Assembly (NCBI GenBank): GCA_003971905.1
Contig: RSEE01000022.1
Coordinates: forward strand, 372,001 to 436,000
Length of the DNA: 64,000 nt
Reading direction: 5' to 3'
Source: Moniliella sp. 'wahieum'
Taxonomy: Eukaryota
Every line of letters begins with the position of its first letter. Position 1 is the first letter of the stretch. The position numbers and the translations under genes were made by a program. Below, piece by piece: positions 6,118-56,432 of the stretch. The notes under the pieces were generated by a model that saw nothing but the letters and a program-made list of their open reading frames with translations, was not told where the DNA came from and searched no databases.

Positions 6118-6119
6118 TT

Positions 6120-6128: not shown

Positions 6129-6158
6129 CTAACCGTCAACAGGCGAGCCCGACCAGAG

Positions 6159-7460: not shown

Positions 7461-7463
7461 GCC

Positions 7464-9330: not shown

Positions 9331-9340
9331 AAGGGGGCAA
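9317..9340 (+). promoter_or_regulatory. Polypurine tract (plus-strand primer)
   Basis: gagatgaggtctgaaagggggcaa immediately precedes the 3' LTR. Confidence 0.75.
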
Positions 9341-9520
9341 TGTCATAGTTGGCTGATCTCGCTCCCATTTCCAATTTCTTCGTCTCGAGCATCTCGCTCC
9401 TTCCCTGTTCCTTCCACTTCGCACCATGTCCTCTGTTCTTGCTTCTTCCCCACGAACGATTGCCACACCCCTTGGCCTAGTCTGATCCTGGTCTCCCTCG
9501 CCTTAGCCCCGACTGTGACA
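9341..9520 (+). repeat. 3' LTR (180 bp)
   Basis: Direct repeat of 5937-6117, followed by TCGCC. Confidence 0.95.
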
Positions 9521-20061: not shown

Positions 20062-21420
20062 TCAGGCTCTGCTATCGAAGATAGCCGTAACGGAAGATTG
20101 GCAACTTCCTTGCTCTCCCCACCAGGCAGGAGTGGAGGAAGGCATGGCGCATATGTCGGCCCCGACCCTTGACTTGTGCCTTGACCTTGGCCTTGGCTTT
20201 GACTTTGAAGAAGATGCCCCACTCGGTACAGGTGCCGACGTTACAGAGCCTGCGGGTGCATCTTCCTCCGGAGCCAGTGACATGGTGGCCCGGTAGCGGG
20301 CAGCTAAAAGTGCTGGCATTGGAGTGCTCGGCGCCATTCCCGGATAATTCATTCCGGACCCAGTCATGCCGGCCAGTAAGGTGCACCAAAAGTTCTTGAG
20401 ACGACCAGCCAGTCAGTTGTCCCTCCCATGGACTAGAGCCCCAAGCGGGTAGGCCTTGAGCGACGGATATGGGGGAAGTTATGGCTGCTTCGGCGGCAGC
20501 GGAGGCAAGCGCGGAGGAATCGGTAACTGCAGGCGGTGGAGCGGGAACCGAAATGGTGGGAGACGCACTCTCTTGCTTGATGGAAGAAGTGGGAGGATCC
20601 AGGGGACCCCGAATCACCACGTTCGTCTTTGCTGCTTTTGCGTCGCAATGCAACGGACGAACGTTTGCGCGGACGCTTGGGAGGAGGTTTGCGCAAGTCG
20701 GGTAACGTGGGTAAAGACCGGCGACCATCAGAATGGACCGGGGCCAGAGAGGCCTCGGGAGGAAGCTCGGAGTGAGCCTGAAGTGTTTCTAGAACATCGT
20801 GTCCATCATTGTCGTTAGAGTGGGGGTCCCAGGCCTGAGCGAGCGCCGCTCAACCGGGTTAAACACAAATTGCTCTAGTTCCCGGCGGACATTGTGTGTG
20901 CGCCGAGGAAGCCGCCCATGCCATCCGCCGCAATATGTGATGCGATCACACCAAGCATGACCCGCAATTTGGCATTTTCGAGCATCAGCCGTCGCAGCAG
21001 CCACCGCAGCCGATTAAGTTGGGTCGCCGGGTCGGAGGAAAGGAGCTCAACACGGCACTCGAGGGCACGAATGTACTCCTGCTTGCGTTGACGGAATTCG
21101 CGCTGCGCCAATCGATTCTGGGTCTTGCGTGTCAAGGCAGCATCACCGGCGGGCACAAATGAGTGGGTCGAGACCGAAGTGGAGGTCTGGGCAGCCAAAG
21201 CCTCCAGCGAAGGGTCGACCTTCATGGATGGGTTAGCGGCCAGCGGTGATTGGGGATGGCCGGCTAGGCTATGCTGGTGGGAATGGACATGCTTGGATCG
21301 GCGGCTGGACATGGCATGCTGTGCTGCGGCAGCGTAGCCGGTCTGGCGATCCTGTGCAGAGAAGGTGCCGTCGTCGAGATCGAGGTCCTCGTCGAGCGGG
21401 TCGAGGCTTCCCAAGGGCAT
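20062..21420 (-). CDS. bZIP transcription factor (AP-1/Yap-like basic region); 3' end uncertain
   Basis: RKTQNRLAQREFRQRKQEYIRALECRVELL followed by a leucine-zipper-like helix. Confidence 0.8.
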
Positions 21421-22038
21421 AACGGCAGGGGCAGTGGCCGTGGCAATTAGCGTGGGGGCAGTGGTTGGAGGTGAAGAAGCAACCAGCAGCAGCGACAGCG
21501 CCCGCAACGGCAGGAGGGGGGCGGGGGGTGGGGGGTGAATGGGCACTCAGCTGAGCGTGAGACGGTGGGCGTTGCGCCACGGTGGGGGCGGCAGCGGGGA
21601 GGCAGCTGCTGCTGCTGGGCTCGCCGGATGGTGCTTAAGGAACTGGCTGGCGCGGATCGGAAACACGGCCACAGCACCGCACCCGATAAGTGATGGCGCG
21701 AGCCGACACTGCCCCGCCCACCCCCCGCTGCGGGCAGATGCCATCACCGTGCATCACCGTGCCACCGCCTCACCGTGCATCCCCGCCGCACTAGGGTTGG
21801 CCGCTATGTCCGACCGGCACGGCGCCAGTGGCCGATGGCTGTCTGGTCCGGCCCGCCGCGCCGGTGGGCTGCACTAGGCCGTACTCGGCTTGCAGTGGCT
21901 TGTGGGGCTCGCAGCGGCCGGGGCGCTCGGGCGGAATGCAGGCGCCGTTCCGCCTGCGCCACGTCGAGCCCCGGCGGCCGTCTGTTCGGCCACCACGGCG
22001 CATCACCACCACCACCCTCCCATCGCCCCCCTCGCCCC

Positions 22039-25000
22039 ATGGAGCCCGCTGCAACCGACCGCGCGGCGGCCGCAGCGCGTGCCCGCAAGCAGCTTGCCAA
22101 GCGCCGCAAGGCCGCCCATGCTGCCTCCGCTGTCGCCCCCGTGTCCGAATCGGCCGAGCCCAGCGCCCCGCCCAGTTCGCTGCGCCTCCTTCCGCCCCCC
22201 GCGTGGCCCGCCGCGTGGCCCCCCGCACCTGTCTCCCGACCCAGCTCCGGAGCGACTGCTCCAGAACCCGCTCCCCTGCTCCCGTCGCTGCGCTCTTGCG
22301 CCCCCTTCGAATCCTGCCCCACGCCGGGCCACGCGCGCACCGCCTCAGCTGTCCCCACCGCCGGTCTCGTTCCACCTGCCCCGCTGGCAGCGCCTGCGGC
22401 CACGCGCTCCAACCGTCTGTCTGGGTTTTTCTCTGCTATGGGCAGCATCGCCACCGACGTTGCTGCCGATGTCGCCCATTCGCTGCTCCGGCCGCCCAGC
22501 CGAAGATGCCAAGCCACCCCCCGCTTCTGCGCCGGCGCCCCCCGCCGATTCACCGGCCAAGGCGTTGCCTGCTCTTCAAACGGGGGGACGTGAGCTCTCT
22601 CTTTGGACAAGCCCCTGGCATGACCTCGCTCAGTCTGCTGGAAGCGCTTCCTTCTTTGGATCTGCCGCTCCGTCAGCTAATCCCCCTGTTGGCTCTCCTT
22701 CAAAACATCTTGAAAATGACCCCGAACCCCCTACTTCCATTGCGCCGGCGTCAAGCGAGATTCCAGAGGAGAATCCGGCTTCTGGGAATGAGCCAGCTCC
22801 ATCTCAAGAGGAAGGGCAGGTTCAGCCGTCCGAGGAAGAGGTGCAGTACGCGCCGGTCCAGTATGACGAGCAAGGAAACGCGTACGATGCTAATGGCCAA
22901 CCTCTTGCCATTGAGTACGACGAGCAGGGTCAGCCCTTTTACCCCTACGTGCAGTACGACGAGGAAGGGCAGGCATATGCACCTATCTATGCTCTGGCCG
23001 AGCCTGCCCCCGAGCCTGAGTACTACCCTGTCCAGTTTGATGAACAGGGTCTGGCGTACGATTACGAAGGCCAACCTCTCCCAATGGAGTACGACGAGCA
23101 GGGACAAGGATTTTACCCCCAGATCCAGTACGATGAGCAAGGGCAGGCCTTTTATCCCCATGTCCGCTATGATTACCCCCTGCAGTCTGGCGAAAACGGT
23201 ATGGCATACGATGCCAATAGCCAGGGTTTGGACCCCAACGGGCATACCAGCAGGAGGGCAGTATGCGGATACGTATGGCGAAACCGCCGTCACGGCTGAG
23301 TCCGAGGATGTTCCTCAAAGCCAGGTGGATTCCGCGCAGGTCAATGATGCGTTTGTTCAAGAGGACACCTGAACCCGGAGGGATTTGAGGCAGCGCCGTA
23401 TGAAGAGGGACACAACTTGGCCCAGGTGGATACGCCCCCAACAGATGGACATGGCCTCTCCCCTGTTCCAGAGAATGGGGTGCCTGGTGAGGAGCAGCTA
23501 CCGGAGCCGCCCACGGAGCAGGATCCCAGTACACTCTTTGCCCCCCCACCACAAATGGCTGGCACGAGAACGATCCCAACACCGCCTTGCTTCCCACAGA
23601 AGCGGGACCTCCCTCGGTTCAAGACGCAACCGCACTTGAACCGGCAGGCGAAGTAGTCCAAGTCCCCAGTTCCCTCTTTGGCCCACCGGAGCAAACCTAC
23701 GAGCTGAACGATTTGTCTGGCGCCCATGCGTCGGATAACACGTCTGCTCCGACAAAGGAACAGAATGTACCTCCTTCTGCGGCGGAGCCAAGTCAGGATG
23801 TGGCTGGGCCTGAATCACAGACTCTTCTCCAGCCCGAACCTGAACTGACTCCAACCGCGCAAGAAGAGCCCCAGGCGGATCCCCAGGCTAGCGACCTTTT
23901 TGGAGCCAATACGCAAGAGCAATCCTCGTGGCTGGCTGATTCAACAGATTCTCCCTCTTCCTGAACAAGCCCAATGACGGGGGTTTGGTGCCTTTTGCTG
24001 CCCCGAAGGAGACGGAGCCTGCGGTAGTCTCCGATCCCAGTTCCCTGTCCCAGGTTTCACAACCGGCAACAGAGCCAGCCAAGCCCGCAGCTGAGCCCGA
24101 GTCGAACCTCGTCTAAGTCTCCACCGGCAGGCGTCCAAAGTCACACGTCCATGCCCAGTGGTGATGTCAGTTCGCTGTTTGCCTCGGGGGCGACTTGTTC
24201 GCCCCCCAGGGAGCCAGCAAGCCTTCATGGCCGTCGCCTCCAGCGAAACCGTTCCAAGGCCCGTCTGATGCACATGTCCAGGCCCCGCAAGCGTTACTCT
24301 CCCCGCCCGTGCCGGAGCCGCAGGCATCGCAAGAAGAACCTCCTGCGGCAGCTGATCTGTTTGGCTCTGGATCTTTCACGTTGTCTCCTGCGGAGCCGGC
24401 CCAATCTGTGAAACAGTCTACTTCTCCTTCTCTGAATGCTCTACAGCCAACGCGGTCCGTGGTGCCACCGCCGTCCTTGGTTCATGAGGAGCCTTCTGTT
24501 GCCGGTACTACTGAACCCCCCCACAAGGAGGGCACGGATGTTGCTGCGCAGTTGGCTGAGGCGCAGTCCCAGCTGGCCGACCTGCAGACTCAGTTGCCAT
24601 CAGGCGCAACTTGCTGCCGATGCGGACAACAAAGTGGCTCAGGCGCAACAAGAACGAGACGAGGCGCGAGACGAGTTGGTGCGGATCAAAGAAGCACAGC
24701 AGACTGAACTTGTCACGGCGAGCACGACTGCCACCCAGCGGGCCCAGCAGGATCTGGACCAGATCAAGGCGCAACTTGTTTCCGTCGAGGGTGAACGGGA
24801 CTCGGCTCGGGCCGAGTTGGCCTGCGTCAGCCAAGGTGGTTGAGTTGAGTGCGGCAGGCGCCCAGGCCGAAGCAGTCCATGCGACGACGACTACCGAGCT
24901 GAGCAGTCTTTGGCCCGCCATGCAGAGTTGGAATCCGCCTTGGCTGAGACCCAGGACCGCTTGACGCGTACCGAAGCCGATCTAAGTTTGTCTCGGGAAA

Positions 25001-26150: not shown

Positions 26151-26398
26151 CCTCCTCGATCTTTCACGTATCCAAAAGCCTTGAAAAGGATGAGAGTAAC
26201 CAATGCCGCGGTACTGTCGGACATAGACAGAGCAGGCCCGCGGGATGACTGGCACAGAGATTCATAGCTGGTGGGGGAGGGGGGAGGGCAGGGGACTAAC
26301 AAGAGACAGGCAAAACTGGGTCACGGCCTTTGTCGCGGGTGCCACTTATATACGTCGATGGAGATACGCCATTGATTGAACGGTACGGTTCACGCTGT

Positions 26399-29300
26399 TC
26401 ACTTCAGACGATCGTGGATTTGGCGCAGGGCATCGTATGCAGCTTGCCGCCGATGGCGCTGGCCCGCTTGCTTCTGCATTGCACTTGCCTGCTCCTGCGC
26501 AAGGACAAGCAGAGGAAGGGCAAGCCGCGGCAGCGGCGCAGTGAATACCGAAGGAGCCGCTGGCAAGGCCAGGACGAAAGCTTGTAAAGAAACACAAGCT
26601 GGCTGCCAGGCACATACTCCGTTCCCGTACCCTGCGCCTCGCCCGACTCGGGGGCAGGGCATTGGCGGGACGGATATGATGGTAGGACATGTGCATGTTT
26701 CGGATCCGTCCAAGTGTGTCGGGGTCGTCTTGAAGTTGGCCAAGGGGGAAATAGTGGGTGATGAAGAGCGTCATGGGGCAACGCTCGGGTGGGAGGGTCA
26801 TCAGGTACTTCAATGTAGCATATGCAATCGCCATGCCATCATCCGTACTGGTCCCCCGTCCCAACTCGTCCATTACCACGAGAACGGTTGGTCGAGGTTC
26901 GCAAGATTTCACCCGTTTCCTCCAGTTCCGTTTGGAATGTACTGCGCCCAGCCGCCAAGTCGTCCGACGCGCCCATCCTGGTGAGAATGGAGTCAAAGAG
27001 CGAAATCTCAGCTCCTTCAGCAGGAACGGCCGCACCAACCTGGGCTAAGAGCACACACAGTGCCATCGCCCGCACGGTGCTGGATTTCCCTCCCATGTTG
27101 GAGCCAGTAATGAGAAGTGCCTTCGTTCCTTCTCCCTCCACGGCATCCGACCCACCTGACCCTCCTCCCAGTTCAATTGAGTTCGGAACATAGTCATCAT
27201 CCATCAGTACCGCGCTCATGGGATGTCGGAAATTCTTGAGGCGCAAGGTGCTCGGCTGCTCCTCAGTGGAGGGAACCATCGTCGGGCGCGACCACCGGGC
27301 AAGGAGGCAAGGGGGCTAAACTAGACAATGCATCGAGGCGGGCCAAAGCCTGGACCGAGTCGCGAAGAGCGACAAAGGTCTCAGCGTTACCGGTCAAGTC
27401 GTTAACAAAGAGCTTGTATGCTGTATTGGCCTGGTCGGCAAGCGTCTCCTTGAGCTGGTTGCGAGTTTGAAGGAGTTCGAGGATCCGAGGTGTTTGGAAT
27501 CGCACCACTTTGGTCGTTCCATTGATGCGAGACCAAGATGCCGGTACACGGCTGACGTTGGCTTTGGTCACCTCAATGAGAAACTCCTTGTCGGCACAAG
27601 TCGCATACTGTAAGTTGGGGCGCTTAAGCATTGTCCGCAACTCCTTCAAGTGGTTGTCAAGATCCTTTTCGTTGACCTGGATCAAGGCTTGCGTCTCGAT
27701 CAGCTCCTCTCGCCAATCTCGGCCATTACTGCGGGAATTTGATCCAAATCAAAAAGACCGACCTTGTCAGACTTCAAAGCGGCCGGCACCTTAATGGCTT
27801 TCAGCGCTCTGTCCAGTACGTGGAGTGGCTTCGAGAGTTGTAGGATACTCTCCTTCAGTAGGGGCGTTGAAAGGGGCACCTCACCAGGCGAAGTAAATGA
27901 AAACTGGGTCGCGACCCGATGCAAAGCCAGAAGCAGTCGCGCCAGTTCTGCCGGTGGGCACGCCCATAGCTCACTCGGGCCAGGCCCTTCTCCAAGTCTG
28001 GCAAGCCGGAAAGAAGGCCAAGAGCGGTAGACAAGGTTGCGCTGCTGCTCATCTTGTCGGCCACTTCCTGCACTGCATCCGCACGTGCTTCCAACTCAAA
28101 TATATCACAGAGTGGACGGGAGAGCCATTCGCGAAGTCGCCGCTTGCCCATCCCCGACCGGCAGCGATCTACCAACCAGATCAGGGACCCTCGGATCCGA
28201 CTGGCCTTGGTCAAACCACTTGCTGAGCTCTCTAGCACTTCGAGATTGGTGAGCGTGCCAGATGTTAAAAGCATGGTGGTACGATCAGCAAAGCTGCGCA
28301 CACGGAACGCACGCTGGAAGAGAGCGTTCAACCCAAAGGATTGAAGATGCTCGATACTCGCCGCTAAACTTTGGACCGTCAGACGAGGCAGGCCATGCAC
28401 AACCGCCGCTCCCTCGCCCACTTTCTCGCCGCTCCCTTCCCGGACGAGATCGTATCCGTCGCAAGGTTAAGGCCGCATTGTATTCCGGCACTGACCGCAT
28501 CCGTTCCACGCGCACAACTTGCCCATCCGATGTTCCGCGAGATGCATAATACTTCAACACCTGCTCAGTGCGATGAGTGAGCGTGGGTGGAAGAAGGAGT
28601 TCCAAGGGACTGAAGTGGGCGAGACGCGTGTCAAGCTCCGAACGAAGGCCCGCATCGTCAAACTCGTCCCACACAATGTCTCCGGTCGAGACAAAGCTGG
28701 CCACAATGCCAATTCTCGTCTTCTCGGCATCCCCTTCCCCCTCGATGGGGCGCTCCACAATCGCTACTAGCTGTGGTGGGTGGCGTTGCTCATGGGCTGG
28801 GCCTCAGTCGACGTCTTAGCACCGTTCTCATCGAAGTTCATGTCATCCACCCAGGTACTGGCGGTGTAGACCGCAGTCACGTCGCGCTCGAACAACTTCG
28901 ACGCATTGGAGGAGGCCCTTGAGCGCCCTCGTCTCCAATTGGGTGACAACCCCCACCTTCAGTCCAGCATGAATCAAGGTACGAATGGACCAGCAACTTA
29001 GACGGGCTGACTACCGCCGATGTCATGTTGCGGTCAGTGAAGCATGCCTGGACATCGGACACACATGTCAGGCACAAGTCGAGCAAGCAAAGTACACACA
29101 CACATACCACATTGAGCAACCGACTTGCCACCTTGGCGTCCTCGCCAAAGAATTTGTAGCGGTAGCCAAGTTCGACCATCAAGACGACGCCTGGGTACCG
29201 CCTCTTCAGATCGAGGATCTGTTCCTCCAACTCAGTATAGGGCAGGCCAGAAGGACCAATCGCTTTAGCAGCTTTGGCAGTTTTAGCCTTAGTCTTGCCC

Positions 29301-29914
29301 TGTGAGGGGGCACTTTTGAAGTTGCCTTTCCACGTGCGGGTGTCGCGGCGAACCGGGCGAAGTTCGAGGAGGAGGCCACAGGGGCATCCTCGTCGCTCAG
29401 CTCAGCGGTGTCCCCCTTGTGCCGTTTGGGGGGGTTCAACTCATCATCGGGGGACGAGGCGGCACGCTTAACTCCACTTGACCAGCCTGTTCTTCTTCGG
29501 CGTCGGGGAGAAAAAGGGGTTCTTGGGGCTGACGCACGCCGTTGTCGCCAGCGAATCCGATCATCCGGTGGCGGATCTTGTCACGCTTAGCTTGGTCTTG
29601 CGCTGAGAGGGAGATGGCATCGGGCTGAGCAGCATCCTCAGAGGAAAAGCGGGCGAGGCGGGCGGAAGAAGCAGATGAAGAAGCAGCCGTACGCTGGGAG
29701 GTGTTGGCGCTGGTTTTGGGTCTGGCGCTAGCGTTGGCCATGGAGGGGGGATCTGGGCGTGGGGGGCGAGGGGGAACGGCAGGCGCAGCGGTTGGGCACT
29801 CATCGCCAGACGAAGTGTCATCGACCAGGACGGTCGACGGCCTTGCTGGCGCACTTGCTGAAGCCCCGGCTGGCGAGGAGCGGGGCGCCCAAAGAAGGAC
29901 TCGAGCGAGCGCAT
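26399..29914 (-). CDS. MSH3: DNA mismatch repair protein MutS homolog 3 (frameshifted, with intron)
   Basis: N-terminal PIP-like SLESFF; LEEQILDLKRRYPGVVLMVELGYRYKFFGEDA (MSH3-type mismatch domain); ITGSNMGGKS, RMGASDDL..GRSTF, MDELGRGTST, TLFITHY. Confidence 0.93.
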
Positions 29915-40358: not shown

Positions 40359-40975
40359 GATACTGACTGATAGATATCCCCAATCATTAACCAGGGTGCG
40401 GTTCAGGCACCACAGAGCGCACCGCCATGTCAGATCACAGAGAGCAAGTCCGTTCACAACAGAAGAAACCAAAGCCGACTGGTCCAAAAGCCACCACTGT
40501 AGGGCAGCACGCAGAGCAGGCTAAGTCCGATGGAGCTGCCTCTGTCAGCGATCAGGCTGATCACAACCAGCACGGCTTATCGATATCAATATCAGCTCCA
40601 GCCAGTATTCAATGCCCAGCGCCCATCCAGCACCACGCAACCCTAGCTGGCCTGGCGCCACTGAGCAGCCCACTGACGCCGTGCTGGGCAGCGCGCTTAG
40701 GCGCTTAGGGGTCAGTCAATTTAATTGTTAGTCTAAGCGCGCTTACACGGGCCTGCTGCTGCTTAATGTTTAGGGGCGTGCACTGGGCCTGTGCCCGTTG
40801 CATCCTGTCTCTGGCCTCATGCATCATGCATCAATGACACCCCGCGTCACGCGTCACGCGTCAAGCTTCAAATTTCAAACTTGAGCTTGAGATGCGAGAT
40901 GCTCTGGCGATGATCGATGACGCGATGACGTGTCAACGTCGCCTCGCGTCGCATATCATCCTGACATGTGATAAG
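40359..40975. promoter_or_regulatory. GATA motifs in the divergent amine oxidase / formaldehyde dehydrogenase promoter
   Basis: GATAAG at 40576-40581 (minus) and 40970-40975 (plus); further GATA cores at 40359-40376 and 40582-40593. Confidence 0.4.
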
Positions 40976-41268
40976 AATATGCCGTGGATCAATTGTGGTT
41001 TTCCAAGTCTCAGTACTGAGACTCAGTACTCAGTACTTGTGCTCAGTTCTAGTCAGTGGGCAGCCGTGTACTGGGCTGTACAGTGGCTGTACCCGCACGC
41101 CTCCAGCCTGCTCTCACCTCCAGCACCAACTGTCGCGTGCCCCCCTCCCCCCCCCCCCAATCCCCCTCTTAAAGCAGTCCCACTTTCACCGCCCACCTCC
41201 CACCCCAACGCCAACAACCCACCGTCTCTTCTTCGCCACCCACACCTACATTCACATCACACCCGACC

Positions 41269-42833: not shown

Positions 42834-45800
42834 TCAAGGCTTGCTCTTCGACTCCCTTGCCGGCTGCGGGGTCATCGAGGAATGGCCGTTAGTATGCGTT
42901 GGATCCGTGTAGCCCTGGGGTAACCGAGCAGAGCCCGGGTTCTGTTGATTTTGGTGACTTGCCAGGGCGGCGGCGCGGACTTGGGCTTCGTAGTACTGGG
43001 CATAGTAGTTGTGGTATGCGGCATTGTACGCTTCCTGGCTAGGGTACACGCCATACTGGTGTTGCCCAAGACCCACGGCCGAAGGAGCGACACCATACGT
43101 TTGCTCGTACCACTCGGCATAGGCTTGGTGAGACACAGGCGTATCCGCACCTCCCGTTGCCCCACCTGCCGCTGCTGGGGAGGCCAGTACGGTGTTGGTA
43201 GAGTGTGTGCGCGACAGAGATGGGGAGCGAGGATTGCCACTCTGGTTCACTTTGCCGGGTCCATGCGTCCTCCCGTGTCGCCTCCCTGGCACTTGGAGTC
43301 GGCGAAGGAACGGGGTCGCGCACCTCCTCTGCTGGCTAAAGAGCCACGCCTCCTGCCCTTGTGCGTGCGAGCGTGAAATGGGCGGAGAGGCGACCTCAGG
43401 TGCGCTTCCGAGTCGGTGGATGAGATCGAATTGCTGATTGCAGCTCTTCCTTCTCATGTGTCTTGCCGTGTCCGCCGTTTCGTTCCGTACTCGAGAGAGT
43501 CGACGACAAGAGTGTGTTCCTTGCCGAAGCAGTCGCGTCGGACGCTTCCGAGAGGGATCCGGGACTGTCACCAAGAGGCGTTCTGGCTGCCCCAAAGGGT
43601 TCCCCAGCACTGACGAGCATACGCGACCGGCGCGTTGCCTGCATTTCAGGTGAGGGGGACGGAGCTGTGGCTCGGGCATATTGGGCATAGGCGGGGTCGT
43701 TGTGGACACTGTACCCCCGCAACCTTGGCCGAGACGCTGTCCGGCAGTTGGCTCATCGGGGCGGTTGATTGCAGGTGATGTGTAGGGGTTTGTTCCCGTG
43801 TCATCCTTTCGGACGAAGCAGGTACATCTGTGTCCATCGGTACGGGGACAGGGACGTCCTATTGGTCCCTGGAGGCTGCAGGTGCCCGTAGCTGCCGGGG
43901 GCAGTGTAAGGGAACGATTGACGAGTAGCCTGATGGTCAGGTAGACCATTCCCGACAATCCCAGACCAGCGTACTCTGTTCGAGGCTGGTCCGCCAGCGT
44001 ATCTGCATGTGAGGGAGAGGCAGAGTAGACCGAAGCGTCGGAAGGAGAAGGCGGAGCCAAAGGGCTCTGGAACATAGGGGATGATGTAGGGACAGCGGAA
44101 TACCCCTTCATGTCCAGACCTCCAAACGATCGGGGAGGCTCGTGCAGTGTCATAGCTGGTGACGCTTGGTAGCTGGACAGGTCTTTCGAGTGTTGCTGGG
44201 GCGAGTCGAGGCTGAAATTCGAGCTGTAATCCAACATGCAGGCGCCTCCTTAGGGTTTGTATCGTCATCGCCCATTGGACCAATGGTAGCTGCGCTGGCG
44301 GTAGAAGAACGTTTGGCAGCCCCCGTTTTGGTGAACGTAGGTGTATCTTCGCTGTGCCCGTATTCGTAGCTGTAGCCATAGCCTGCGTCCAGGATCTTTG
44401 TTTCTCCCTAGACGCAGTCTTGTTGGGCTGAGCTTGAGGGATCCACGGAGCCAGAATCATTAGCGAAACGCACCCTTGGTCGATCGGAGGCGGCATATTC
44501 GCCAGAAGGGGAGGGGGAAGAAGCCAACAATCCTTCTCGACTGGGCGTCATTTCGCTTTGGTACCCTCAACGCCTCGACCAGCTCCTAACCAGATGCCAA
44601 CTCAGCAGCCTTGGTGGCGATAGAGCGGGCGTGCTTGTCTGCATATCCGTCATGTCCCGGTGGACCTTCGAATTGCCCCGCTTTTTGCGTACACAGAACA
44701 ATGCCAATATGCCCGCACAGATGGTGAGGATGGCGAGGCCAACTCCCCCTCCAATAGCAATCACGATAACATCCGCCATACTCAAATGGTTGGAGTTACC
44801 GTCGTCAACTGTTCCGGTGAAGCCGGCCCCCTTGTGGTTTTTATCGGTTGAATTACCCGAACCAAGGGAGGTCCCGAATTTGGAGCAAAGCGAGGGATGG
44901 CCATCGTCCGCGCCGAGTACCACGTTCAGGTTCGCCACCACGACGGAGGAGTCAGGTACAGTGATCGAAAGGGAACCATCGTCGCCAACCTGAAACGACT
45001 TCTGTTGGGATGAAGAAGTTGTGTTTACCAGTTGGGGCTGCCGTCCCCACTGGACTCATACTCCATACCGTTCCAGGTGGTGTTGGTGGTGCTGGCGGCG
45101 TAGGCAGCATTCAAAGAAGAAACGAAAAAGGTCTTTCCCTTGTAGTACGGTAAGGACAGATTAAATGTAACTGTGGGCGCACTTTGGCGACGGTGTTTTC
45201 CACGGTTCAAGAAAGAATGTGAATGAGAGCGGCGCTGGGGCGGGCGTAAGTCGCATTTGGCCGAAGGGGTTCGTGTTCAAAAGCACCACGGCCTGAAGGG
45301 TGTTGTGGCGATACACCCCATAAGCAGCCAGGCGCGTAGTGTAGGAGTCAGGCACTCCGGTAAGGGGGATGGCAGCGAAATTGGTGTTGCACCCTGTTCC
45401 TAGAAGCTGCGCCAGTGCGGCAAATGCATAATAGGATGAACGGACATGGGGGCCCACGCCATTTTGCTCGTTGGGTTGCCAGGGAGAGCCATAGGAGTTG
45501 TCGGTCATGTGGATCTGCGTGCTGGCAACGCCGACGGTGGAAGCAAAAGAAAGTAGTTCATTGTCCATAGTGTATTAGCTTATGAGCCATCAAGTCAGTA
45601 TGATACGCCTGAACAGGTTGGACCGCGTCTCAACGTACCGAAGTATCGCTAATGCCTTGTATGCCTGTGGACCCACGACCCCATTTCTCGCACAAAGTAA
45701 GGCTTTCCAGAGGCATTGCCTGTTTGGCTTGATTGGTCCACTCCGTGTACTGTTGAGTCATAGCTGGCAAACTCAGCAACGGTCGATGGTCAAGTTCCAA

Positions 45801-46767: not shown

Positions 46768-46810
46768 AAGAGGGTGGGGGGGGGTGGGGGGGGGGGGGGG
46801 GGGGGGGAGG
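46768..46810 (+). repeat. Poly-G tract upstream of the GH79 gene
   Basis: About 40 nt of nearly pure G. Confidence 0.8.
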
Positions 46811-49800
46811 TGCGCAGGGGATGGATGGGGAGAAGGGAAAGAGAGAAAAGTGGCGGCAGGACATCCCGACCCGCTGTGATCGCTGATCGCTGATGGCGTG
46901 TATCATTATTCATTCCTGATGTGGGAATGGTGCTCGCAGCGTCTCGTGCCTGCCTCTGCGTCCTGGTTGTCGCAGACTGCATTCCAGCTCCGAAAGGCCA
47001 GGGCACCCAAGGGCCACCACGGCGGCCCAGAGACAGAGCAGGACAGAACCCTAACATACCCCAACCCTTTCCCAGGCAGACGCTCGCGGACAGGGCCCAT
47101 ATCCTTGCTAGGTGATGAGCCGCTGAGCGGCGGAGCGCTGACGCATGATGCATGACGCTTGACGCGTGACGTGCATGACGGGTGCCTGAGTCGGCAGCGA
47201 TCGATGATGCAATTGCGTGGTGCCTGAGCAAGAGCGCGCTGATCGCGCCGATCAGCTGCCAGAGCGGAGGGGCAGGAGTGCAGTGTCACATGCAGGTGGC
47301 ACCCTGTCCCTGTCTATGTCTGACAGGCGCAGTCCCAACCCAGACGGCATGCAGCGCATTGCACAGCAAAGTGCTTCGGCTGCCGCTGGACGTGCAGCGG
47401 CACGCACTCTGCCGGCGTCTTTCCCCGCTGGCTTGGTAGCGGCAGCGCTTGGCCGAACGGCACCACGCCACACTGGCCCGAAGCTGGTCGCTGATCCTCC
47501 GCCCTCGCTGCACGGGGTTGCACATTGGCTGCACTGAGGCTTTTGGCCTGTGGCTTGAGGGCCTGAGGCTGCCGGTAGGCAGCGGTGTGTTTGTTCGGGA
47601 CCTGCATGGGACTTGCATGGCACCTGGCAGATCCATGCCGCGCCAGCGTGTCCAGGGTCCAGCAGGGCACAGCCAAGCAGGACTGCATCGTCCAAGCGCT
47701 GTTTCCCCGCACTGTACGCTCCGCCGCCCCGGCACCTCCCCACACAGGCGAGAACTGAGCGCAGGAGGGTTAACGCGCTAAGGGTTACACGTCAACCACC
47801 GGACGCTGCCGTCTCGATAGCTATTACAGTAGAGGTGACTTGGAGTTACATGGGCATCGCACCCACCCCTTGCCGGGACTGGCAATATAGTACGTTTTTC
47901 CATGCTGATCCACTGCCTGGTGATACATGCTTGCTGAGCTGGGCGCTGGGCGCTGAGCGCTGGAGCCCAATGGGATCTGAGATCTCACTGAGATCTGAGT
48001 TCTGATAGTCGATAGAGCTTAGAGCTTAGAGGCTCTCTTGCGAAATGCTCTGACATGCTCTCCTCTTTTGCTCTCGCTGGCTGGACCGAACGTTGGCCAC
48101 ATCTGAGATCTGAGCTGCACATCGGCTATTTTATTCTCTGTGCACCACACCTCCTACAGAGAGTCTCAACCTCTGGTTGTGGCCATTGCTGAGAGAGACT
48201 CAGCCCTTGGCAGAAATGTATATAGATGCTGGTCGATTGTCGTCGCGTCGATGAAGCTTGAAGCTTGAAGCATCAGACCGTTCATTGATTATTGTTTGTG
48301 TGCCTTTTTGGTACCCCCAACACACAAGACATGTGGCTATAGTGATGGTTAACACTGACTGTGTGCAATGGTTGCTGCGGGTGCCATTAAAACATGTTCT
48401 GACTCTGATTATATAGTTTTGTTCGTACAGCAACTACAGAAGCTTGAGAGCACAGCTTGAGATCAACTATTGCATTATTCATGTGCCAGAGCTCAAACCC
48501 AGCAATCAGTCAACGTTACTGATATGTGCTTTGAGAAGTAACTTAACGTGAGTGTTGAACGAGTTGGCAAGACACAATGTTGGCCTAGGGAGCCGTACGG
48601 GCAGAAGGATGAGGAGAAGGTGATGGATTATCGATTATCGATTAGTAGAGCCAAAGTTGGGTCTCGGTACAGAGGCATCGATCCAGGAGGCCGGACTAGG
48701 CACATGGCCAGTGAGTCACACAGGAGAGAGTGTAGCGCACAGGGACAGTGACACGCTGGGACACCAGCGTGGAAGCCGATGGAACCGAGACGAACCTTGT
48801 CTACCGACTGGGAGCCGGAGGATCACATCCATCACAGACAGTCAATACACAAAATCGAAAATACCCCAGATTTTTAAAAGGATCCGATGCTTCTCCACAT
48901 ACACTCTCTTCTACGGGCTTAGCGGATCTAAGGCCGTCTCTTCCTAACATGGCGTTCTTCTGACAGTTCTTTACTGTATACGGGGGCCTCAGGTCGCAGA
49001 GGACGGGTGCGTAACGCGTAATTTCTAATGGTTGTGTGATTTCGTTGCCACCACAAAGCTGGCCCGCCATAAAAGACTTCTCGGTACAGTTCGTAGTCAC
49101 AGTTACTTCTTGGCAGTCAGTATACTGTCATCGCCCCCTCATGCCAGTCCTCATGGCTCACATGCCTATCAACACACCGACGCTCACTTGTGTCCACAAC
49201 CGGACTCCACCCGGATCGGAAAGCAAAGGAGCCAGAGAGATTCGGAGCTTCTCGCGACACCATTGGCGTCCTGATTAATGATTGGATGGGCACGAGCCAA
49301 CCGAGCTGTATAACAGAAGAGTATTGTCACAGGCCTAGCTAGCGATGCTGGCGATGGTCGATGGAGATGGCATTCAAGAGCTAAGGAGAGCTAGAGCTAT
49401 GGGCCTTGATAGGCTCCTGGCCTGGAGGCCAGTGGAAACCCGTGGAAGGGTCGGAACTCACTGCCCCGGTGCACTGTGTGGATCGGGCCACGTGTCACTG
49501 AAGGCCGATGGGCTCTAGACCACTGGTGGTCAACAAGTATTTCATGCCGGATGAGCAAGCGGCTGGTATATAGCTTCTTTATTCCTTTTATCTGGAGTGT
49601 TGCAAATGCTATTAGTACACAGCGCTGTCGTGAGGTCGATTACAGGGAGAGCAATAGACTCCACGAGTATTATGATCTATCGACCAGATACTTGCCGTGG
49701 TAGGATTTGATCACTTAACGGTGTATATCAGATCGCCGTTTCGTGGGTAGATGTACATGCGATAGAAGCATAGACTTGTGAGATACATGACAACCAAACC

Positions 49801-49891: not shown

Positions 49892-51580
49892 TCAAAGGTA
49901 CTTGTGCCAGCGGGAGCGAAGAACAAAAAGGAGTAAAGTGGCAATCAATGTGGTGACGGCCGCCACCGAGAAGGAGAGAGAGCAAGCGCGGCCAGCGCGG
50001 CAGATGGCCGGCGGTGAGCCTTCCTCGAACACATCCAAATATCCCAGGGGAAGAGGCCGCTTGGCAACCGCATCGGAAACCGTGGCGTACAGCATGGGGA
50101 ACCCAAATGACCCTAAAGCACTAGCGTAAGAGAGTAGCCCCCATGAGCGGCCAAATGTCGACAGGCCAAACGCTGATGCAACGATCGAAGGCACCAGCGT
50201 GAACGTGGATCCGTAAAGGAACCCGACCGCAGCTGCCAGACAAAGCAGGCCATGAAGCGTGCTCAGTCCCACAGCGGCAAAGGTAAACATGAGGGTAAGG
50301 CTGCCTGTAGCCGCGACCAGGAGCGTTACCCGAGAAATCCTGACGCGCAAGAGAGCGTACTTGATCCGAGCGAGTGTGCCCTGGGGAACCTCTCGCTCCT
50401 CCACTGCCCGTGCAGGGCTCACGGCATCGGCTACCACACCGGCCAACAGACGGGATGCTGTGTTGGTCATGGCAAGAAGAGAGATGACGCGAGAGCGCCA
50501 GCGAAGCTCGTCGCGTGCCACCCCGGGCACGTCCGCCAAATCGCCCAGGTTGGTCTTGTGGGGGTAAAGGGCAGCGACCATGGACCCCACATTTGACATG
50601 ACCATCTCTCCAGCACCCACTGCTGTAACGAGGATGAGGGCCAAAATCCAAACCGAGGGAGAGAAGATAAAGTCACGCAGACTCTCCGAACGTGGTGTGA
50701 GCATTGACGTGCTAGACCGCACACTCCATCCACTTGCCCCTGCCGGATCGAGCATGGAGCTCTCCGGGTCAGAAATCGGGTTGTTCCCTGGATTCGAAAT
50801 GGAAGAGACAAGAGGCGTCCGTTCGTTCGCCTCGTCGCCTTGCGCAGCAATCCGGGCCTGTTCAGCGGCAGCCCGAGCCCGAGCCTGATATTGCTCGTGC
50901 CGCACCCCTTGCCCATGCGCTTGCTTGGTCTCCTGCTCATCCACCTTTGGAGCCGAGAGCATGCCCCAAGCAGCAATCACGTTGGATCCGCCCAATACCA
51001 CAGCAAGGAAGGTAAGGAAGCGGGTGGTGTCCAGGTCACCGGTGTTGGCGTCGACAAAGAACCGCTCGCCGACGGCAGTGAGGAACATGGAGCTCAAACT
51101 GAAGAGCGTAAGAGGAAGAGCAATTGCCAGACCAGGCTGTTGAGGCCAGACTCGCGTAGCCGCAGTCATAGATCCAAAATACGCCGCTCCCACACCGGCA
51201 CCAACAAGAGCAAAACACATGCCGAGGTAGATTGTCGGCCCCAACCCCAGTGGCGCTCGAACCACCGACGCACCGATGCCATCTCCGCCCTGAGCCGGTG
51301 CACGTTGTGCCATCAGGCTGTACCCCAGGCCAAAAAGCACACTGGCGCCGACGCTTAGTGGAGCAGGACCAAATTGGTCGGCAACAGCGCCCCAACCAGC
51401 TGCGCTCAGATATTCGCCTAGCACGGTGGCGGACCAGAGGATGTTAGTCTGCTTGAGGTCCAGTGCAAAGTCCGCCATGAGCGAAGGGCCGATGAGGGGG
51501 AAGCAAAACAAGCTACCCGCTGTCAACGCATTGATCGCGACGCTGGCAATGACCAGCGCTCGACGGGGTTGGGTCAACAT
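49892..51580 (-). CDS. MCH1: MFS transporter, MCH1/nodulin-like
   Basis: Uninterrupted ORF with about 12 hydrophobic segments; AGSLFCFPL, WGAVADQFGP, GLAIALPLTLFSLSS, GAGEMVMSNVGSMV, SRLLAGVVAD, FGLSTFGRSWG. Confidence 0.85.
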   Translation of the reverse strand: MLTQPRRALVIASVAINALTAGSLFCFPLIGPSLMADFALDLKQTNILWSATVLGEYLSAAGWGAVADQFGPAPLSVGASVLFGLGYSLMAQRAPAQGGDGIGASVVRAPLGLGPTIYLGMCFALVGAGVGAAYFGSMTAATRVWPQQPGLAIALPLTLFSLSSMFLTAVGERFFVDANTGDLDTTRFLTFLAVVLGGSNVIAAWGMLSAPKVDEQETKQAHGQGVRHEQYQARARAAAEQARIAAQGDEANERTPLVSSISNPGNNPISDPESSMLDPAGASGWSVRSSTSMLTPRSESLRDFIFSPSVWILALILVTAVGAGEMVMSNVGSMVAALYPHKTNLGDLADVPGVARDELRWRSRVISLLAMTNTASRLLAGVVADAVSPARAVEEREVPQGTLARIKYALLRVRISRVTLLVAATGSLTLMFTFAAVGLSTLHGLLCLAAAVGFLYGSTFTLVPSIVASAFGLSTFGRSWGLLSYASALGSFGFPMLYATVSDAVAKRPLPLGYLDVFEEGSPPAICRAGRACSLSFSVAAVTTLIATLLLFVLRSRWHKYL

Positions 51581-54574
51581 GGTGTGTTGGCCGGGGGATG
51601 CAAGTTGGAAGTGCCGAGAGGGCTGCAATATGTGTGTAGGTCACGCCGCTGGCCGTGGGTGCGGGTGGAGCACGTGGTGGTGGTGAGGACGATGGGAGAT
51701 TGAGAGGGAGAGGGCAGCGGTTGTTGCTCGCTGGGCGCACCACCTGGGCGGAGGGTCTGGGGGAGTGGACAGGGGGCTGATTAGGATACTGTGCTGCATG
51801 CTATACAGGGGCATTGTGGTTACCGGCGGCTACCGGTGGGATCTGAGACCAATCAACGTTGCCCGGATCTTCTTCCGCTATCTAAGATCTAAGATCTAAT
51901 CGCAGCCACACAGGCAGACCGACGTCACACTGGCGCCATGCGGTACACGTGACCATTCCTTGATTCCCTCCTCGTGGCAAACTGGGTTCCATCTGGGATC
52001 TCACATGCGCATGATCGATGTCGATGGCATCCCAGCCACGCTCGAATCGGGAGAAGAGTGCCCCCCAGTGCGGCGCTCAGGCCCTCCGGTTGAGCCGTGT
52101 CGTGTCATCATGTCATCGATCTCATCGATCATCCATCATGCGTCTGCTTCAGGACCTCGTGCTCACGCGCTCACGCCTCCACGCGGCCCGGATGTGCGTC
52201 CTCTGCTGAGGTAACCCGATAACGTGTAAGTAACGCGCAACGCGTATAACGCGTAGCCGCCGCCTGACTGGCCGATGCGGCAAAGCAATAGCAATCACTG
52301 CACCACTCCCGCCATCGCCGCTCCACGCCCCTCTGTTCTCCACAACATCAGTCATCGACGTCATCAATCATATTGGGCCGAATGGCAATGACCCGGACAG
52401 CATATCTGCCCACACGCTCCACATCATATAGAGAGAGAGGTGCTTTCACCTTTATAAACAGCGCTGTGTTGTCCTTCAGCTGTGTTTCGTCTCACACGAC
52501 CTTAATGCTCGCTTGAAGTATGAGAGCAAATCAATCACGGGGGCCGTGTTCAGGCAAAGCAGGTTCATCATCCTCATCGGCCTCATTCATCATCACATTG
52601 CCAGGTTATCCCGCGGTTACTATATAGCTTTCCTGCCCATTCTGGCTTTGAGTGAGAGGCTTGTGCTATAGTGACCGTGGGGCAGATCAATGGAGAGAGC
52701 TCTGCTAAAATACTAGGATCTGAAGCCTGATGGGGAAAGCAAAAGGAGACGGACCTTTTGGCTAAAAACGCACGAGAGGAAAGCACGTGAAACGGGCCGT
52801 ATATGTTGGGGCCTAATACTGAAAGCGATGGGGAAAGTTGCGGTGGTAATGGGGTGATGGGTTCTTTCCATTGCTGGGGTGCATTTCTCTCTCCCAAGCG
52901 GGGAGACCGAGGGGCAGGGACTGAGGTGACAAGGGGAAAATGTCGAAATGATCAAGGCTCGTCTCCACAACGGTGCACAGTACCAGTAGCAAAGTCCACA
53001 GACGCTCAACAAACCCACCGTGTTTACAAGTACTCGAGGCCACCGCTTGCAACCAGTGTCTCGTCCAGCTACGTAATTGAGCCCCACGAAAAAGGCTTAC
53101 AGTCCACGGCTCTGACCCCGGGTGGCAAGCGCTGCCAGTCTTGGGCTAGGTTTTGACTGTGGTCAGATGTTTGGCGTTGGCACGCAATCGGGGTAGAGGG
53201 CTGTTATTACGGTTCGCATATCGGTATTAGGGAACATATACTCTTGGTACGTGGCAGTACGAGAGTCGAGACGTTCAACTCTCGATAATCTCCTTGTATA
53301 TGACAGAGAAAAGAGGAACACAAGCTGCTAGTAACCCCAATTCACCATCGTATAGCTTTCGAGTAGAGCCGAAGTACTACCCTTTCGGGAAGTGGCATTT
53401 TTTCAAGCCAACACTCCCTCTGACAGGAGCCAAAAGAGATAACAGCATAAAACGATCAGAAAAGTCTCAAGCATTGACCTCCCACGTCGTCTCATCGGGG
53501 CCCGTCGAGACTCCATACATATGAAATGCGTTCAGACCGGCTGTTCTAGCCGGGTTCTACCCTTCGTATAATGACACTGCCGGATTGAAAACGGCATTCT
53601 ATAGTCAGCAACGCCGAAAAATATGCCACTTTCCATGTGGGCAAAGTGCGACCAAACAAATCTATACTGACGCTGGGGTTTTTGCTGGGCCATGCCGCGC
53701 TAGCGTTCTACTGTTTTGGTTTGTATTATGAACTTCACATCACAGCAACGCTAGGATGAGCGAATGATATGTCAAAACGGGATTCTTTGCCATGCGGAAA
53801 CGAGCGATGAAAAGGCATCAAGTGCAAAAGCGGAGGAGACGGCGCGATTGGTTAACCTCTTCCCCCCGCACTTCCTGGACAAAGACCATTTGTCTAAGCG
53901 AAGGAAGGGAGCAGATATAAAGAGCTAGTAACGGTGGTGTCGGTAGAGTAATACCCATGCTGTGGTACCGTGGATTGACGGGAAAGTATCGAATCCATGT
54001 AGTTAGCACGGGGCGACTATTACAAGTCGCTTTGTATAGCCCCCTCCACTCCCTTATGGTCGCTCTCGCTCCTCGGTTTCTCTTCCTATCACTACTCAAC
54101 TCTATGTTGACCCGGATTTTCGGCCTATCTACAAAACCCACACAATAATCGTCATTTCTTCTCCCCTCGCGGTCGTCTAAAATCCAAAACACTACACATG
54201 TGGTTTCGACCCAGTTTCTCGCCTTGTTTCTCGTCTCGGGTTCGCTTCATCCTTGACCCTCGCCTCGTCTCTTACCTTGTACCTCTTGTGCTTGGTCCTC
54301 ACTTCTTCCTTGGCTCATTTCCCCTTTTCACTGTAATAGACCAGTTAGTCTTTCCTTTGCCCCCCCCCTTTCATCTTCTCTAAAGCCTCTCTGTCTGTTC
54401 TTATATAGGGACTTTGGATCTGAAACGCGTTCAGTCCTCCGTGAGTCTTGTCTCCAATGGGTAGGGAAGGTCTCCGTCTGGGGATCCAGCAACCCCGTTA
54501 CACTCCTTTCTTTTCCTCCATTTCTCGCGTTTCCTGACACGCAACGGTTGAAACAGTTGTTGCCTTCACCTCTC

Positions 54575-54756
54575 TTTCAAACTTTGGCTAATCTCGCTCC
54601 CATTTTCAATTTCTTCGTCCCTACCGTCTCGCTCCTTCCCTGCTCTTTCGCTTCGCACCATGCCCTCTGCTCTTGCTTCCTCCCCACGAACGATTGCTAT
54701 ATCCCTTTGCCTAGTCTCGACTCTGGTCTCCCTCGCATTTTACCCCGATTATGACA
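54575..54756 (+). mobile_element. Diverged solo LTR of the family at 5937-9520
   Basis: Aligns end to end with the LTR (about 84% identity by manual alignment); ends in TGACA; flanks CTCTC/CACTC form a 4-of-5 degenerate TSD. Confidence 0.88.
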
Positions 54757-56432
54757 CACTCTCGTACTCATTCCTCCCACATACGTCGCCAAACCCGAAG
54801 TCAGGTTTCAAGCTATATAGGTTCAAGCTGCCCGTGCCCCTGTCGCTTTCTATTTGTTGTTCTGGTTGGTATTCATCCCTATATCTACACTCAGTGAATT
54901 CCAGCATTTACGGAAGTTATACCACGGACAAAGAAAAGCTATGCGCCTATATATCACAGAAGGCCTATCAGGCTCTTGCATACACTCGGTGGATGCTTGC
55001 TGGTGCCAACCCAATAAGAGATCAGTTCGATCAGTGGAGCTGCTAGCAGGTCGGGACCCTCTGGCTCCCTCCTCCGTTCGCTTCCAACCCGAATGCAGTG
55101 CGAGTGTGGATACGGATGAGCGTGGGAGACACGGTGAGCGACGACGGACAAGGATCGACGGCACGTCCTTAGTCTTTTTGCCATGCAAATTTCAGTATTC
55201 CAGTAGTCAATACTTCGATGGCCTCGATGGTCACCGGTGAGTGGTGAGCCGCTGATCGATGATCGATGATCGTGATCGACGATCCTGGTTTGGCCAGTTG
55301 CCCCGTTTGGACGATGGAGGCGATGCGATCAACAGATGAGGTGGCTTCGAAAGGCTACACTGGCTGAGTCTAAACGCGTAAGTGCTACGTGTTAAGTCCT
55401 AGTTACTCGGTACTTTCATGCATCATGCAACAACGGTATAATCCTCAAGGTACTCAGTACGTTCAGTTGAGTACCGAGTATTTCCTGCAAGAGGTATGGG
55501 TATGTGTCCATCACCTGGGTTTGATGCATGTGATGGTTCCGAGATGGATTGCACGTTGCGCACAGACGTGTCGGAGTCGGGGGAAGACAAGGAGAACCAA
55601 ATACCCAAGGGCGCAAATGGAGGGCAAACATGCCTAGAAAGGGAAAGACAAGAAGGATTGCCAGATTACCTCGATTACCTAAGAGGCCTATGGCACCCCT
55701 TTTTGTATTCCCGAGGCACTAGGCCCTCGTGGTTCTAGACCGGTCTCGAAGTGCATTGCCGGTTGGGAGATGGATGGAATAACCCTAGCACGGAGCGCGC
55801 GCGCACACCGTTTGGCCCTACACACTGCTGCTACTGTCGTCCGCGAGCTCTTTTTTTTGGCGGCGAGGTCGCCGACAGCAAGGGGGCAGTGCAGCGACAG
55901 CCGCAAGGCACAGGCAGAGCACAGACAGAGCACAGGCTCTCTGGGCTCGGGCGGCGCGAGAGCAACTGGCCTGGTGCTGGGTGGGTTGGGGCTGCGCAAG
56001 AGGGCGAGCGGCAGGCGAGGCGGGGCAGGAGGGCAGTGCCAGCAGAGGTGATGGGGTGGTGGAATTCCGCTGCCCATTTGCAGGCGGCGGGCAACAGTGG
56101 CCGGATGCCGGCGGCGGGCGGTGGACGCGACCAGTCAGCGATCTGCAAGCGGCGTGGACGGTGGGCGGCGCGGCGCCAGTGTGGGTGGGTGCTGAGCACG
56201 GCGGGAGCGTGGCTGACGGCGTGGTCCGACGGCCACTGCAGTGCTGCGGTGCTCGGCTGCTGCTGTGCTGCTGCTGCTGCTTTTCGCTGCCATTGGCTCC
56301 TCCCCGCCTCTCCGACCTCAGCCCGCTCAGCGTGCTTTGCCCATCGAAGCCCGAGCCTGCGTCTGAGCATCTGCGTCCAAGCGAGCTGCCACGCCTTGCC
56401 GTTGCTCCCGCCTCTGCCTCCGCCTCGCCGCC

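Follow-up and report, generated by a model that had tools for sequence, protein, structure and literature searches.

In a 64,000-nucleotide stretch of the genome of Moniliella sp. 'wahieum' (contig RSEE01000022.1, positions 372,001 to 436,000, assembly GCA_003971905.1; hereafter the window), the non-coding DNA carries short heptamer arrays in which a T-N-A trinucleotide (TNA) alternates with 4-bp palindromes. The pattern is real and far above chance, and a single grammar fits the arrays: a 7-base word, ab-TNA-cd, is directly duplicated, and the two copies either abut directly or are joined by a filler that repeats, in inverted orientation, the inner end of one of them. The commonest form, TNAcd + d'c' + TNAcd, yields a 4-bp palindrome and adds exactly seven bases. 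Judging from the sequence, we see about an even chance that the arrays are excision scars of a cut-and-paste element with a 7-bp TNA-centred target duplication and hairpin-closed flanks.

Coding DNA was masked with a codon model trained on Pfam-supported frames, which assigned 29,996 bases to coding and 34,004 to non-coding DNA; the mask is rough, and its non-coding class includes some real coding DNA. In a content-free test on the whole window, exact period-7 runs of at least two copies were found 27 times, against 3.3 ± 1.6 in 30 dinucleotide shuffles. Period 7 also takes up 26 of the 108 rows of the Tandem Repeats Finder output, and direct 6-mer repeats in non-coding DNA reach their maximum at lag 7 (152 vs 10). 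Motifs were counted in 33.8 kb of non-coding DNA and compared with 100 shuffles of the non-coding segments. A 4-bp palindrome (P4) between two TNA spacers occurs 51 times (4.7 ± 2.3 in the shuffles) and a TNA between two palindromes 43 times (5.6), with the same core on both sides in 19 cases (0.5) and different cores in 24 (5.1). These counts show the enrichment over shuffled background whose absence would have refuted a first-pass annotation of the window; its four quoted heptamer strings are all present where it placed them.

Palindromic core and TNA spacer are both specifically required, as the annotation implied. With a non-palindromic core, TNA-N4-TNA is not enriched (84 vs approximately 76), and alternative dyad spacers are at chance (P4-ANT-P4, 7 vs 5.8; P4-CNG-P4, 9 vs 9.9; P4-GNC-P4, 11 vs 10.1). 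Coding DNA shows no excess, in agreement with the annotation (TNA-P4-TNA, 3 vs 3.1; P4-TNA-P4, 1 vs 3.9). When all 32 strand-paired trinucleotides were surveyed as spacers, TCA/TGA ranked first (37 vs 3.5, z 18), followed by CTA/TAG (9 vs 2.3) and TAA/TTA (6 vs 1.9). ATG/CAT (11 vs 4.2) was dropped as a genuine spacer because 4 of its 11 cases are the TCATGCA array in a shifted register, and the remaining spacers were at chance. A reading of the spacers as stop codons (TGA, TAA, TAG) was dropped as well, since the cases with TAG lie scattered and the TAGAGCT array reads as two GCTTAGA units with a central TTA. A general palindrome excess was rejected, only A..T-closed 6-mers (158 vs 97) and TNA-centred odd 7-mers (156 vs 105) being enriched. 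As a negative control, 13 unrelated metagenome loci, found via a neighbouring copper amine oxidase and only distantly related (31 to 66% identity over short stretches), had no excess of the TNA pattern (22 vs approximately 27). Within the window, the arrays are not parts of larger dispersed repeats.

The orientation of the spacers was one of the observations that led to the grammar. Among 51 pairs of adjacent spacers the N is identical in 40, complementary in 7 and otherwise in 4; thus the spacer repeats directly and not inverted, and a fold-back or inverted duplication was dropped on this ground. Symmetry axes every 3.5 bp, which the annotation had proposed, are accordingly found in same-core arrays but do not hold as a general rule. 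Pairs of TNA with the same N are enriched at lags 7 (88 vs 23), 8 (35 vs 24) and 9 (39 vs 24) and also at 14 and 15, with no enrichment at lags 3 (22 vs 26), 5 and 6, and pairs with complementary N are enriched at no lag. Footprints of the mariner type (TA-TSA-TA) were dropped, as the flanks are inverted rather than direct.

The length of the period-7 match runs indicates the base form. Runs with palindromic cores number 4, 1, 10, 6 and 3 for lengths 3 to 7, and those with non-palindromic cores 16, 12, 7, 7 and 1. The former fit neither a 10-mer extended by chance nor a pair of complete copies. Their base form is a 12-mer of 1.7 copies (TNAcd + d'c' + TNAcd), in which a 5-base direct repeat encloses a 2-base filler that is the adjacent cd inverted; the 10:6:3 tail is consistent with this 12-mer plus chance extension (calculated fractions 0.53, 0.29 and 0.12). 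Ordinary slippage of a single unit, already doubted in the annotation, does not account for arrays that begin at 1.7 copies and are not in excess with non-palindromic cores. An unbiased scan for copy + filler + copy recovered the class of five repeated and two inverted filler bases 15 times (2.5 ± 1.7 expected), 9 of the 15 being of the TNA type. In this class the template of the filler is in every case the end that faces away from the TNA. This asymmetry vanishes if the duplicated word is read as seven bases with the TNA in the centre, two of which, at the start of the second copy, give way to the filler.

The 7-base reading, drawn from the lag-7 data, predicted exact 7-mers with a central TNA separated by short fillers, and when this was checked 15 loci were found with one to four filler bases. 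The filler is an inverted copy in 14 of the 15: 5 of 6 with one base, 7 of 7 with two, and the single cases with three and four. By manual parsing, 5 of the 7 loci with 2-base fillers do not allow the alternative parse, a 5-base copy and a longer filler; a 5-bp duplication with two inverted bases was dropped, since it needs an unexplained asymmetry and is resisted by these lag-9 loci. At three loci the inverted stretch is longer (4, 5 and 7 bases) and includes the central N, which appears as its complement, just as a genuine inverted copy requires. The annotation's proposal of transposon footprints at TNA targets therefore survives in its hairpin or inverted-duplication part, which the fillers fit, and fails in its 3-bp duplication, given the chance level of lag 3 and a duplicated word of seven bases with the TNA at its centre.

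A scan with the full grammar gave 127 matches for central TNA, against 1.7 in shuffled sequence; for ANT there were 3 (1.4), for CNG 13 (4.8) and for GNC 11 (4.1). The class with two inverted and two lost bases has 43 matches (0.25 expected), and exact tandem 7-mers, in which two direct copies of the target word are present, have 22 (0.13). Merged, the matches make up 41 loci with a total of 836 bases; 39 loci are non-coding, and the 2 in coding DNA are weak and of the least informative class. The density is approximately 1.1 loci per kb of non-coding DNA. Lags 7, 8, 9 and 11 all occur among the scars, with one class dominating; a single filler is two-sided (position 21742, 1+2 bases), and TNATNA is not enriched.

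The features that first drew attention to the arrays follow from this grammar. The register is kept since the inserted length is seven, the spacer is fixed within an array since N is copied with the duplicated word, and the core is automatically palindromic since it is built from the dinucleotide beside the original TNA. Events on the opposite strand draw on the dinucleotide upstream, so that one original site can bear two different cores. The cores are thus not the free alphabet of interchangeable palindromes they were first taken for: each derives from the two bases flanking the original TNA site, and they match the flanking dinucleotides, for example at 15232-15279 and 40909-40930. Switching of cores in register was confirmed as an excess of different-core junctions, but 14 of the 24 junctions stand alone, another 7 border an array on just one side, and true multi-core arrays account for only 3, so this feature is rarer than the annotation's best example suggests. 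The following loci illustrate the grammar:

15232-15279: the best worked example, with four full CTTGAAG and a partial CTTGA, fillers CTTC (four inverted bases), AG (two inverted bases) and none, followed by TGA-CATG-TGA-CA; the whole stretch can be derived from a single site CT-TGA-CA.
40695-40709: GCTTAGG + C + GCTTAGG, two copies of a 7-mer with central TTA around a single filler base, inverted from the neighbouring end.
40813-40833: GGCC-TCA-TGCA-TCA-TGCA-TCA, the first string of the annotation, the TCATGCA array being 40817-40833.
40843-40892: copies of CGTCACG, then TCA-AGCT-TCA-AATT-TCA-AA, then CTTGAG twice; the annotation's clearest multi-core array. The left core CGCG agrees with the upstream flank CG and the last core AATT with the downstream flank AA; the middle core AGCT, beside AACT, suggests a transition between events.
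40909-40930: GA-TGA-TCGA-TGA-CGCG-A-TGA-CG, with the left core TCGA from the flank GA, then GATGACG + C + GATGACG at lag 8.
40962-40971: a bare 10-mer TGA-CATG-TGA with a match run of 3, a class at chance level.
41008-41037: TCTCAGT, its full 7-base inverted copy ACTGAGA (central N complemented), then CTCAGT-AC-TCAGT-AC-T.
5036-5051: GGTTATG + CC + GGTTATG, a full 7-mer with a 2-base inverted filler.
10009-10044: GA-TGA-TCGA-TGA, then CCTCACC + GG + CCTCACC.
10118-10150: CT-TCA-AGCT-TCA, then an AACGTTT array of 2.4 copies.
14137-14157: TCTGATC + GA + TCTGATC, then GA-TGA.
14197-14210: ACTCAGT twice, an exact tandem of an odd palindrome.
14432-14447: TCTGACG + CG + TCTGACG.
47976-47993: TCTGAGA + TCTCA (five inverted bases, N complemented) + CTGAGA.
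48250-48270: GA-TGA-AGCT-TGA-AGCT-TGA-AG, with the core from the downstream flank AG.
48626-48646: a GATTATC array of 2.7 copies, spacer TTA.
51881-51901: a TCTAAGA array of 2.9 copies, spacer TAA.
52103-52133: TGTCATC + A + TGTCATC, then TCA-TCGA arrays.
55020-55035: GATCAGT + TC + GATCAGT.
55251-55277: a TGATCGA array of 2.9 copies.
55664-55679: GATTACC + TC + GATTACC.

Some further observations concern decay and distribution of the arrays. At 47938-47963, GCGC alternates with TGG and TGA in units of the GCTGGGC type, as if transitions had turned TGA spacers of an array into TGG. At 47139-47180 the succession TGACGCA TGATGCA TGACGCT TGACGCG TGACGTG shows cores (CGCG, CGCA, TGCA, CGTG) that differ by single CpG-type transitions, so that some of the core variety comes from point mutation after duplication; the TGACG words abundant there resemble bZIP half-sites. 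Three stretches that the mask gives as non-coding (52492-54242, 23498-24467 and 62460-63422) have no arrays at all, whereas the intergenic DNA around them carries 4 to 8 chains per kb. Genes that escaped recognition, DNA of younger age or some form of protection may account for this. The most over-represented non-coding 7-mers of the window are TATA-like, CTATATA (15 occurrences at 13 loci) and GTATATA (13 occurrences at 12 loci), ahead of the words of the arrays.

If the arrays are excision scars, integration of the element would repeatedly have made 7-base staggered breaks centred on T-N-A (ab-TNA-cd), leaving two direct copies of the 7-mer. On excision the flanking ends would be sealed as hairpins, as in hAT, Transib and the Mutator group, and the hairpins opened a couple of bases off the tip, so that one end gains its last bases inverted (P nucleotides) and the other end loses the matching bases. 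The main product would be ab-TNA-cd-d'c'-TNA-cd or its mirror ab-TNA-b'a'-ab-TNA-cd, with seven bases added, the same N in direct orientation and a palindrome made from the flanking dinucleotide. Opening of both hairpins two bases from the tip, with one overhang kept and the other clipped, would give exactly the dominant class. The new 7-mer, d'c'TNAcd, would be an odd palindrome in which the inverted filler equals the replaced bases, and further events or slippage would therefore breed true and give exact tandem arrays; events at both sides of one original site would put two different cores in register.

Both halves of the grammar match known transposition steps. A direct duplication of fixed length on a short symmetric word matches the staggered target cleavage of a transposase, and inverted inner ends with loss on the other side match hairpin closure and off-centre opening of the flanking ends. 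According to the part of PMC5499845 used here, hAT, Transib and MULE transposases form hairpins on the flanking DNA, and the portion of PMC5873905 on Ac/Ds in a fungus describes footprints that are short deletions or palindromic P-nucleotide insertions. Duplications of 7 bp are attributed to hAT7 of rust fungi and Kyakuja of Laccaria, both DNA transposons of Basidiomycota, in the section of PMC12730594 consulted. By our own rough arithmetic there are approximately 50 visible events per 1,467 non-coding TNA sites, so no implausible transposition rate is demanded. The sequence itself shows the grammar, with its statistics and its confinement to non-coding DNA; the hairpins, and a DNA transposon making 7-bp target duplications as their cause, are what we infer.

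Several points weigh against this reading. No DNA transposase was found in the 64 kb among 372 open reading frames (222 of at least 110 amino acids, plus 150 of the 186 shorter ones from non-coding regions), and a search of the window for inverted termini with flanking duplications gave nothing convincing; a TCA-flanked inverted pair at 14202-14664 proved to be not an element but two GTACTCA arrays in opposite orientation. The class with two inverted and two lost bases dominates strongly, while the Ac/Ds footprints in the part of PMC5873905 drawn on are more varied. In the scans of the window the product that keeps both overhangs is never seen, and the one with both removed (TNATNA) stays at its background level. 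T and A lie at positions 3 and 5 of the 7-base word, unlike the known hAT targets, which are 8 bp long with the pattern nTnnnnAn. The density of loci is also far above what we take to be the density of transposon footprints elsewhere. Finally, one and the same 64 kb served both to derive the grammar and to test it, although the filler prediction preceded its check.

A host process with the same break-and-repair grammar is the alternative that survives best, although we regard it as rather unlikely. A domesticated transposase or a nuclease would cut seven bases apart at TNA, and fill-in followed by turn-around synthesis or by hairpin processing would complete the scar. The sequence grammar fits such a process equally well, and the two readings are not separable here. 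Both the very uniform product spectrum and the window's lack of a DNA transposon speak for it; yet a window of only 64 kb is short, so that a missing element says little. We know of no host nuclease with such a cut pattern, which counts against the proposal, and integration with excision gives the duplication and the inverted filler without a new enzyme.

Structure-driven microsatellite dynamics could also be considered, since odd-palindrome heptamers may form hairpins with a 5-bp stem and a TNA loop, and would then slip and expand more than other units. Exact tandems of up to three units are present, near-copies with one substitution are enriched (40 vs 9.1, both strands counted), and the region quoted in the annotation folds better as single-stranded DNA than its shuffles (z -3.45, 1 of 200 shuffles as good). 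However, hairpin-biased slippage leaves unexplained the base form of 1.7 copies instead of 2, the inverted-copy fillers of one to four bases, and the missing enrichment of ANT, CNG and GNC odd palindromes. Moreover, tandem perfect 6-bp palindromes are rare, with CTGCAG twice as the single case, and wholly different palindromes stand in register 28 times (5.5 expected, both strands counted). We therefore consider slippage of this kind an unlikely origin of the arrays.

Selection on cis-elements is improbable as their source. Promoter arrays of sites for a dimeric protein, reading A-NNNN-T hexamers or TSA repeats, would agree with the position of arrays 250 to 750 bases upstream of three start codons (placed from translations) and with the presence of AGCTTGA (11 loci) and GATCTGA (13 loci) among the most over-represented non-coding 7-mers, beside the TATA-like words; some array hexamers, such as ACGCGT and GATCGA, are presumably similar to known fungal sites. 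But the arrays occur throughout intergenic regions, in apparent 3' flanks as well as far upstream of genes (9790-11000 and 47146-49734, with gene orientations inferred), and at least 13 different cores share one spacer rule. The cores are, besides, predictable from the neighbouring dinucleotide, and binding does not require an inverted-copy filler. A binding-site role may be a later use of the arrays. Footprints of elements with a 3-bp TNA duplication, the palindrome being the two terminal bases of each inverted end, would give TNA-palindrome-TNA with the same N and period 7, but they are very improbable: bare 10-mers are at chance (4 with a match run of 3, against 4.7 for any N in the shuffles), array-adjacent flanks agree with the core far above 1 in 16 as judged from run lengths, at least 13 families with different termini would be needed, and full 7-mers with 1- to 4-base fillers would be impossible.

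If the arrays are indeed scars of excision, approximately 2.5% of the intergenic DNA (the 836 bases of the 41 loci) would record, in legible form, a single mutational process that follows a precise rule. Excision scars would then be able to seed and lengthen short tandem repeats of unit length 7, and would create 6-bp palindromes of the type bound by dimeric regulators, which may feed promoter evolution. We hold it possible, with somewhat less than even confidence, that an undescribed and very active hairpin-forming transposon whose 7-bp target is centred on TNA, or a nuclease descended from such a transposon, has left more than one scar per kb of intergenic DNA, and that the scars become self-renewing palindromic heptamer arrays, a new birth route of short tandem repeats and palindromic promoter words. 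The signature, a duplicated nnTNAnn with inverted filler, could be used to seek the responsible element and to date its activity across Ustilaginomycotina; should no such element exist, the signature would instead indicate an unknown break-and-repair activity.

The arrays quoted in the annotation sit in a divergent intergenic region of approximately 1.1 kb, between the first two genes listed below. GC content is 46 to 68% per kilobase, mostly 52 to 62%, and genes are split over several frames.

Start approximately 40174 (placed from the translation), minus strand: copper amine oxidase (Pfam), on one side of the array region.
Start 41298 (placed from the sequence), plus strand: zinc alcohol dehydrogenase (Pfam), on the other side.
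49895-51640, minus strand: transporter of 582 residues; of 7 proteins above threshold, the named ones most similar to it come from Tilletiaria anomala (46% identity) and Ceraceosorus (40%), which places the organism among the basidiomycetes, close to the Exobasidiomycetes; the searched database lacked the organism's own proteins.
26349-29401, minus strand: MutS-family mismatch-repair homologue with all five MutS domains, in pieces.
16599-18657, minus strand: SNF2/chromodomain remodeller.
20878-21546, minus strand: bZIP factor.
45028-45276, minus strand: glycosyl hydrolase 79 fragment.
5946-9521: Ty3/gypsy-like long terminal repeat (LTR) retroelement of approximately 3.6 kb, with LTRs identical over 173 compared bases and ending in TG..CA, and a 5-bp target duplication TCGCC.
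54574-54760: solo LTR from this retroelement family; its identity to the intact LTRs is 86 to 88%.

The retroelement is the only mobile element of the window, and heptamer arrays are absent inside it. Pfam recognised gag, integrase zinc-binding, integrase core (below cut-off) and Tf2-type SH3 domains in different frames, and found in it no reverse transcriptase or protease; it is therefore probably an internally deleted, recently inserted copy. Comparison of the solo LTR with the intact LTRs showed no 7-base insertions or deletions. An array of 18-base, GCCCCA-like repeats inside the retroelement (7457-7619) is the source of a lag-18 peak in the repeat scans, and a 96-base tandem duplication (11651-11843, 95% match) lies within a long minus-strand reading frame that has no Pfam match. 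A C-rich tract (41140-41166, with a run of approximately 19) just upstream of the dehydrogenase start and a run of 36 G (46772-46807) pair as an inverted repeat 5.6 kb apart through composition alone.

A literature search found no description of such heptamer arrays, and since the element is not seen they are not assigned to any named transposon family. Known systems share some of their features. PIF/Harbinger elements, whose target is TWA with an extended palindrome centred on it, resemble the arrays in a target centred on a T-N-A trinucleotide. They are associated with a 3-bp duplication in the part of PMC12730594 drawn on, whereas the word duplicated here has seven bases, there is no excess at lag 3, C or G takes the N position in 37 of the 43 P4-TNA-P4 cases, and the match runs centre on 5 to 7 bases and not on 3. 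The Tc1/mariner footprint is a TA duplication flanking two to three bases of each element end; in the window there is no TA periodicity, and the cores vary and derive from the flanks. Slippage microsatellites share with the arrays short head-to-tail copies, restriction to non-coding DNA and one-substitution variants, but in them any unit expands and arrays start at two or more copies, while here the 7-base unit is strictly constrained in content, non-palindromic cores are not in excess, the base form has 1.7 copies and fillers are inverted. To our knowledge, repeat surveys of smut fungi stop at 6-base units and so omit period 7.

In V(D)J coding joints, made by the RAG/Transib chemistry, P nucleotides are templated from the flanking DNA end. 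A shared hairpin pathway is described in the part of PMC5499845 used here. The arrays likewise have short palindromic additions templated from a flanking end; they differ in having no recombination signal or immune locus and in the coupling of the additions to a 7-base direct duplication. hAT7 and Kyakuja share the 7-bp duplication and the phylum, and hAT7 belongs to a hairpin-forming superfamily, but the section of PMC12730594 consulted reports them from other subphyla, and no copy or transposase of theirs lies within the window. A canonical hAT duplication of 8 bp with the nTnnnnAn preference is not what the scars show, their word being 7 bases long, with T third and A fifth. The scars resemble hAT-type Ac/Ds footprints, which, in the portion of the literature we draw on, also have two direct copies of the target word, a joint with the inverted inner end of one copy and base loss from the other, and occasional long inverted tracts. 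Here the duplication has 7 bases instead of 8, with T-N-A central, and the palindromes are centred between bases, whereas those of Ac/Ds are, in the same part of PMC5873905, centred on the complement of the element-adjacent base. One product class dominates in the arrays, no element has been seen with them, and the scars recur at the same site and form arrays, at approximately one per kb of intergenic DNA. The chemistry has precedents; the novelty lies in the 7-base TNA-centred target, the density of the scars, the self-renewing arrays and the rule by which each core is made from its flank.

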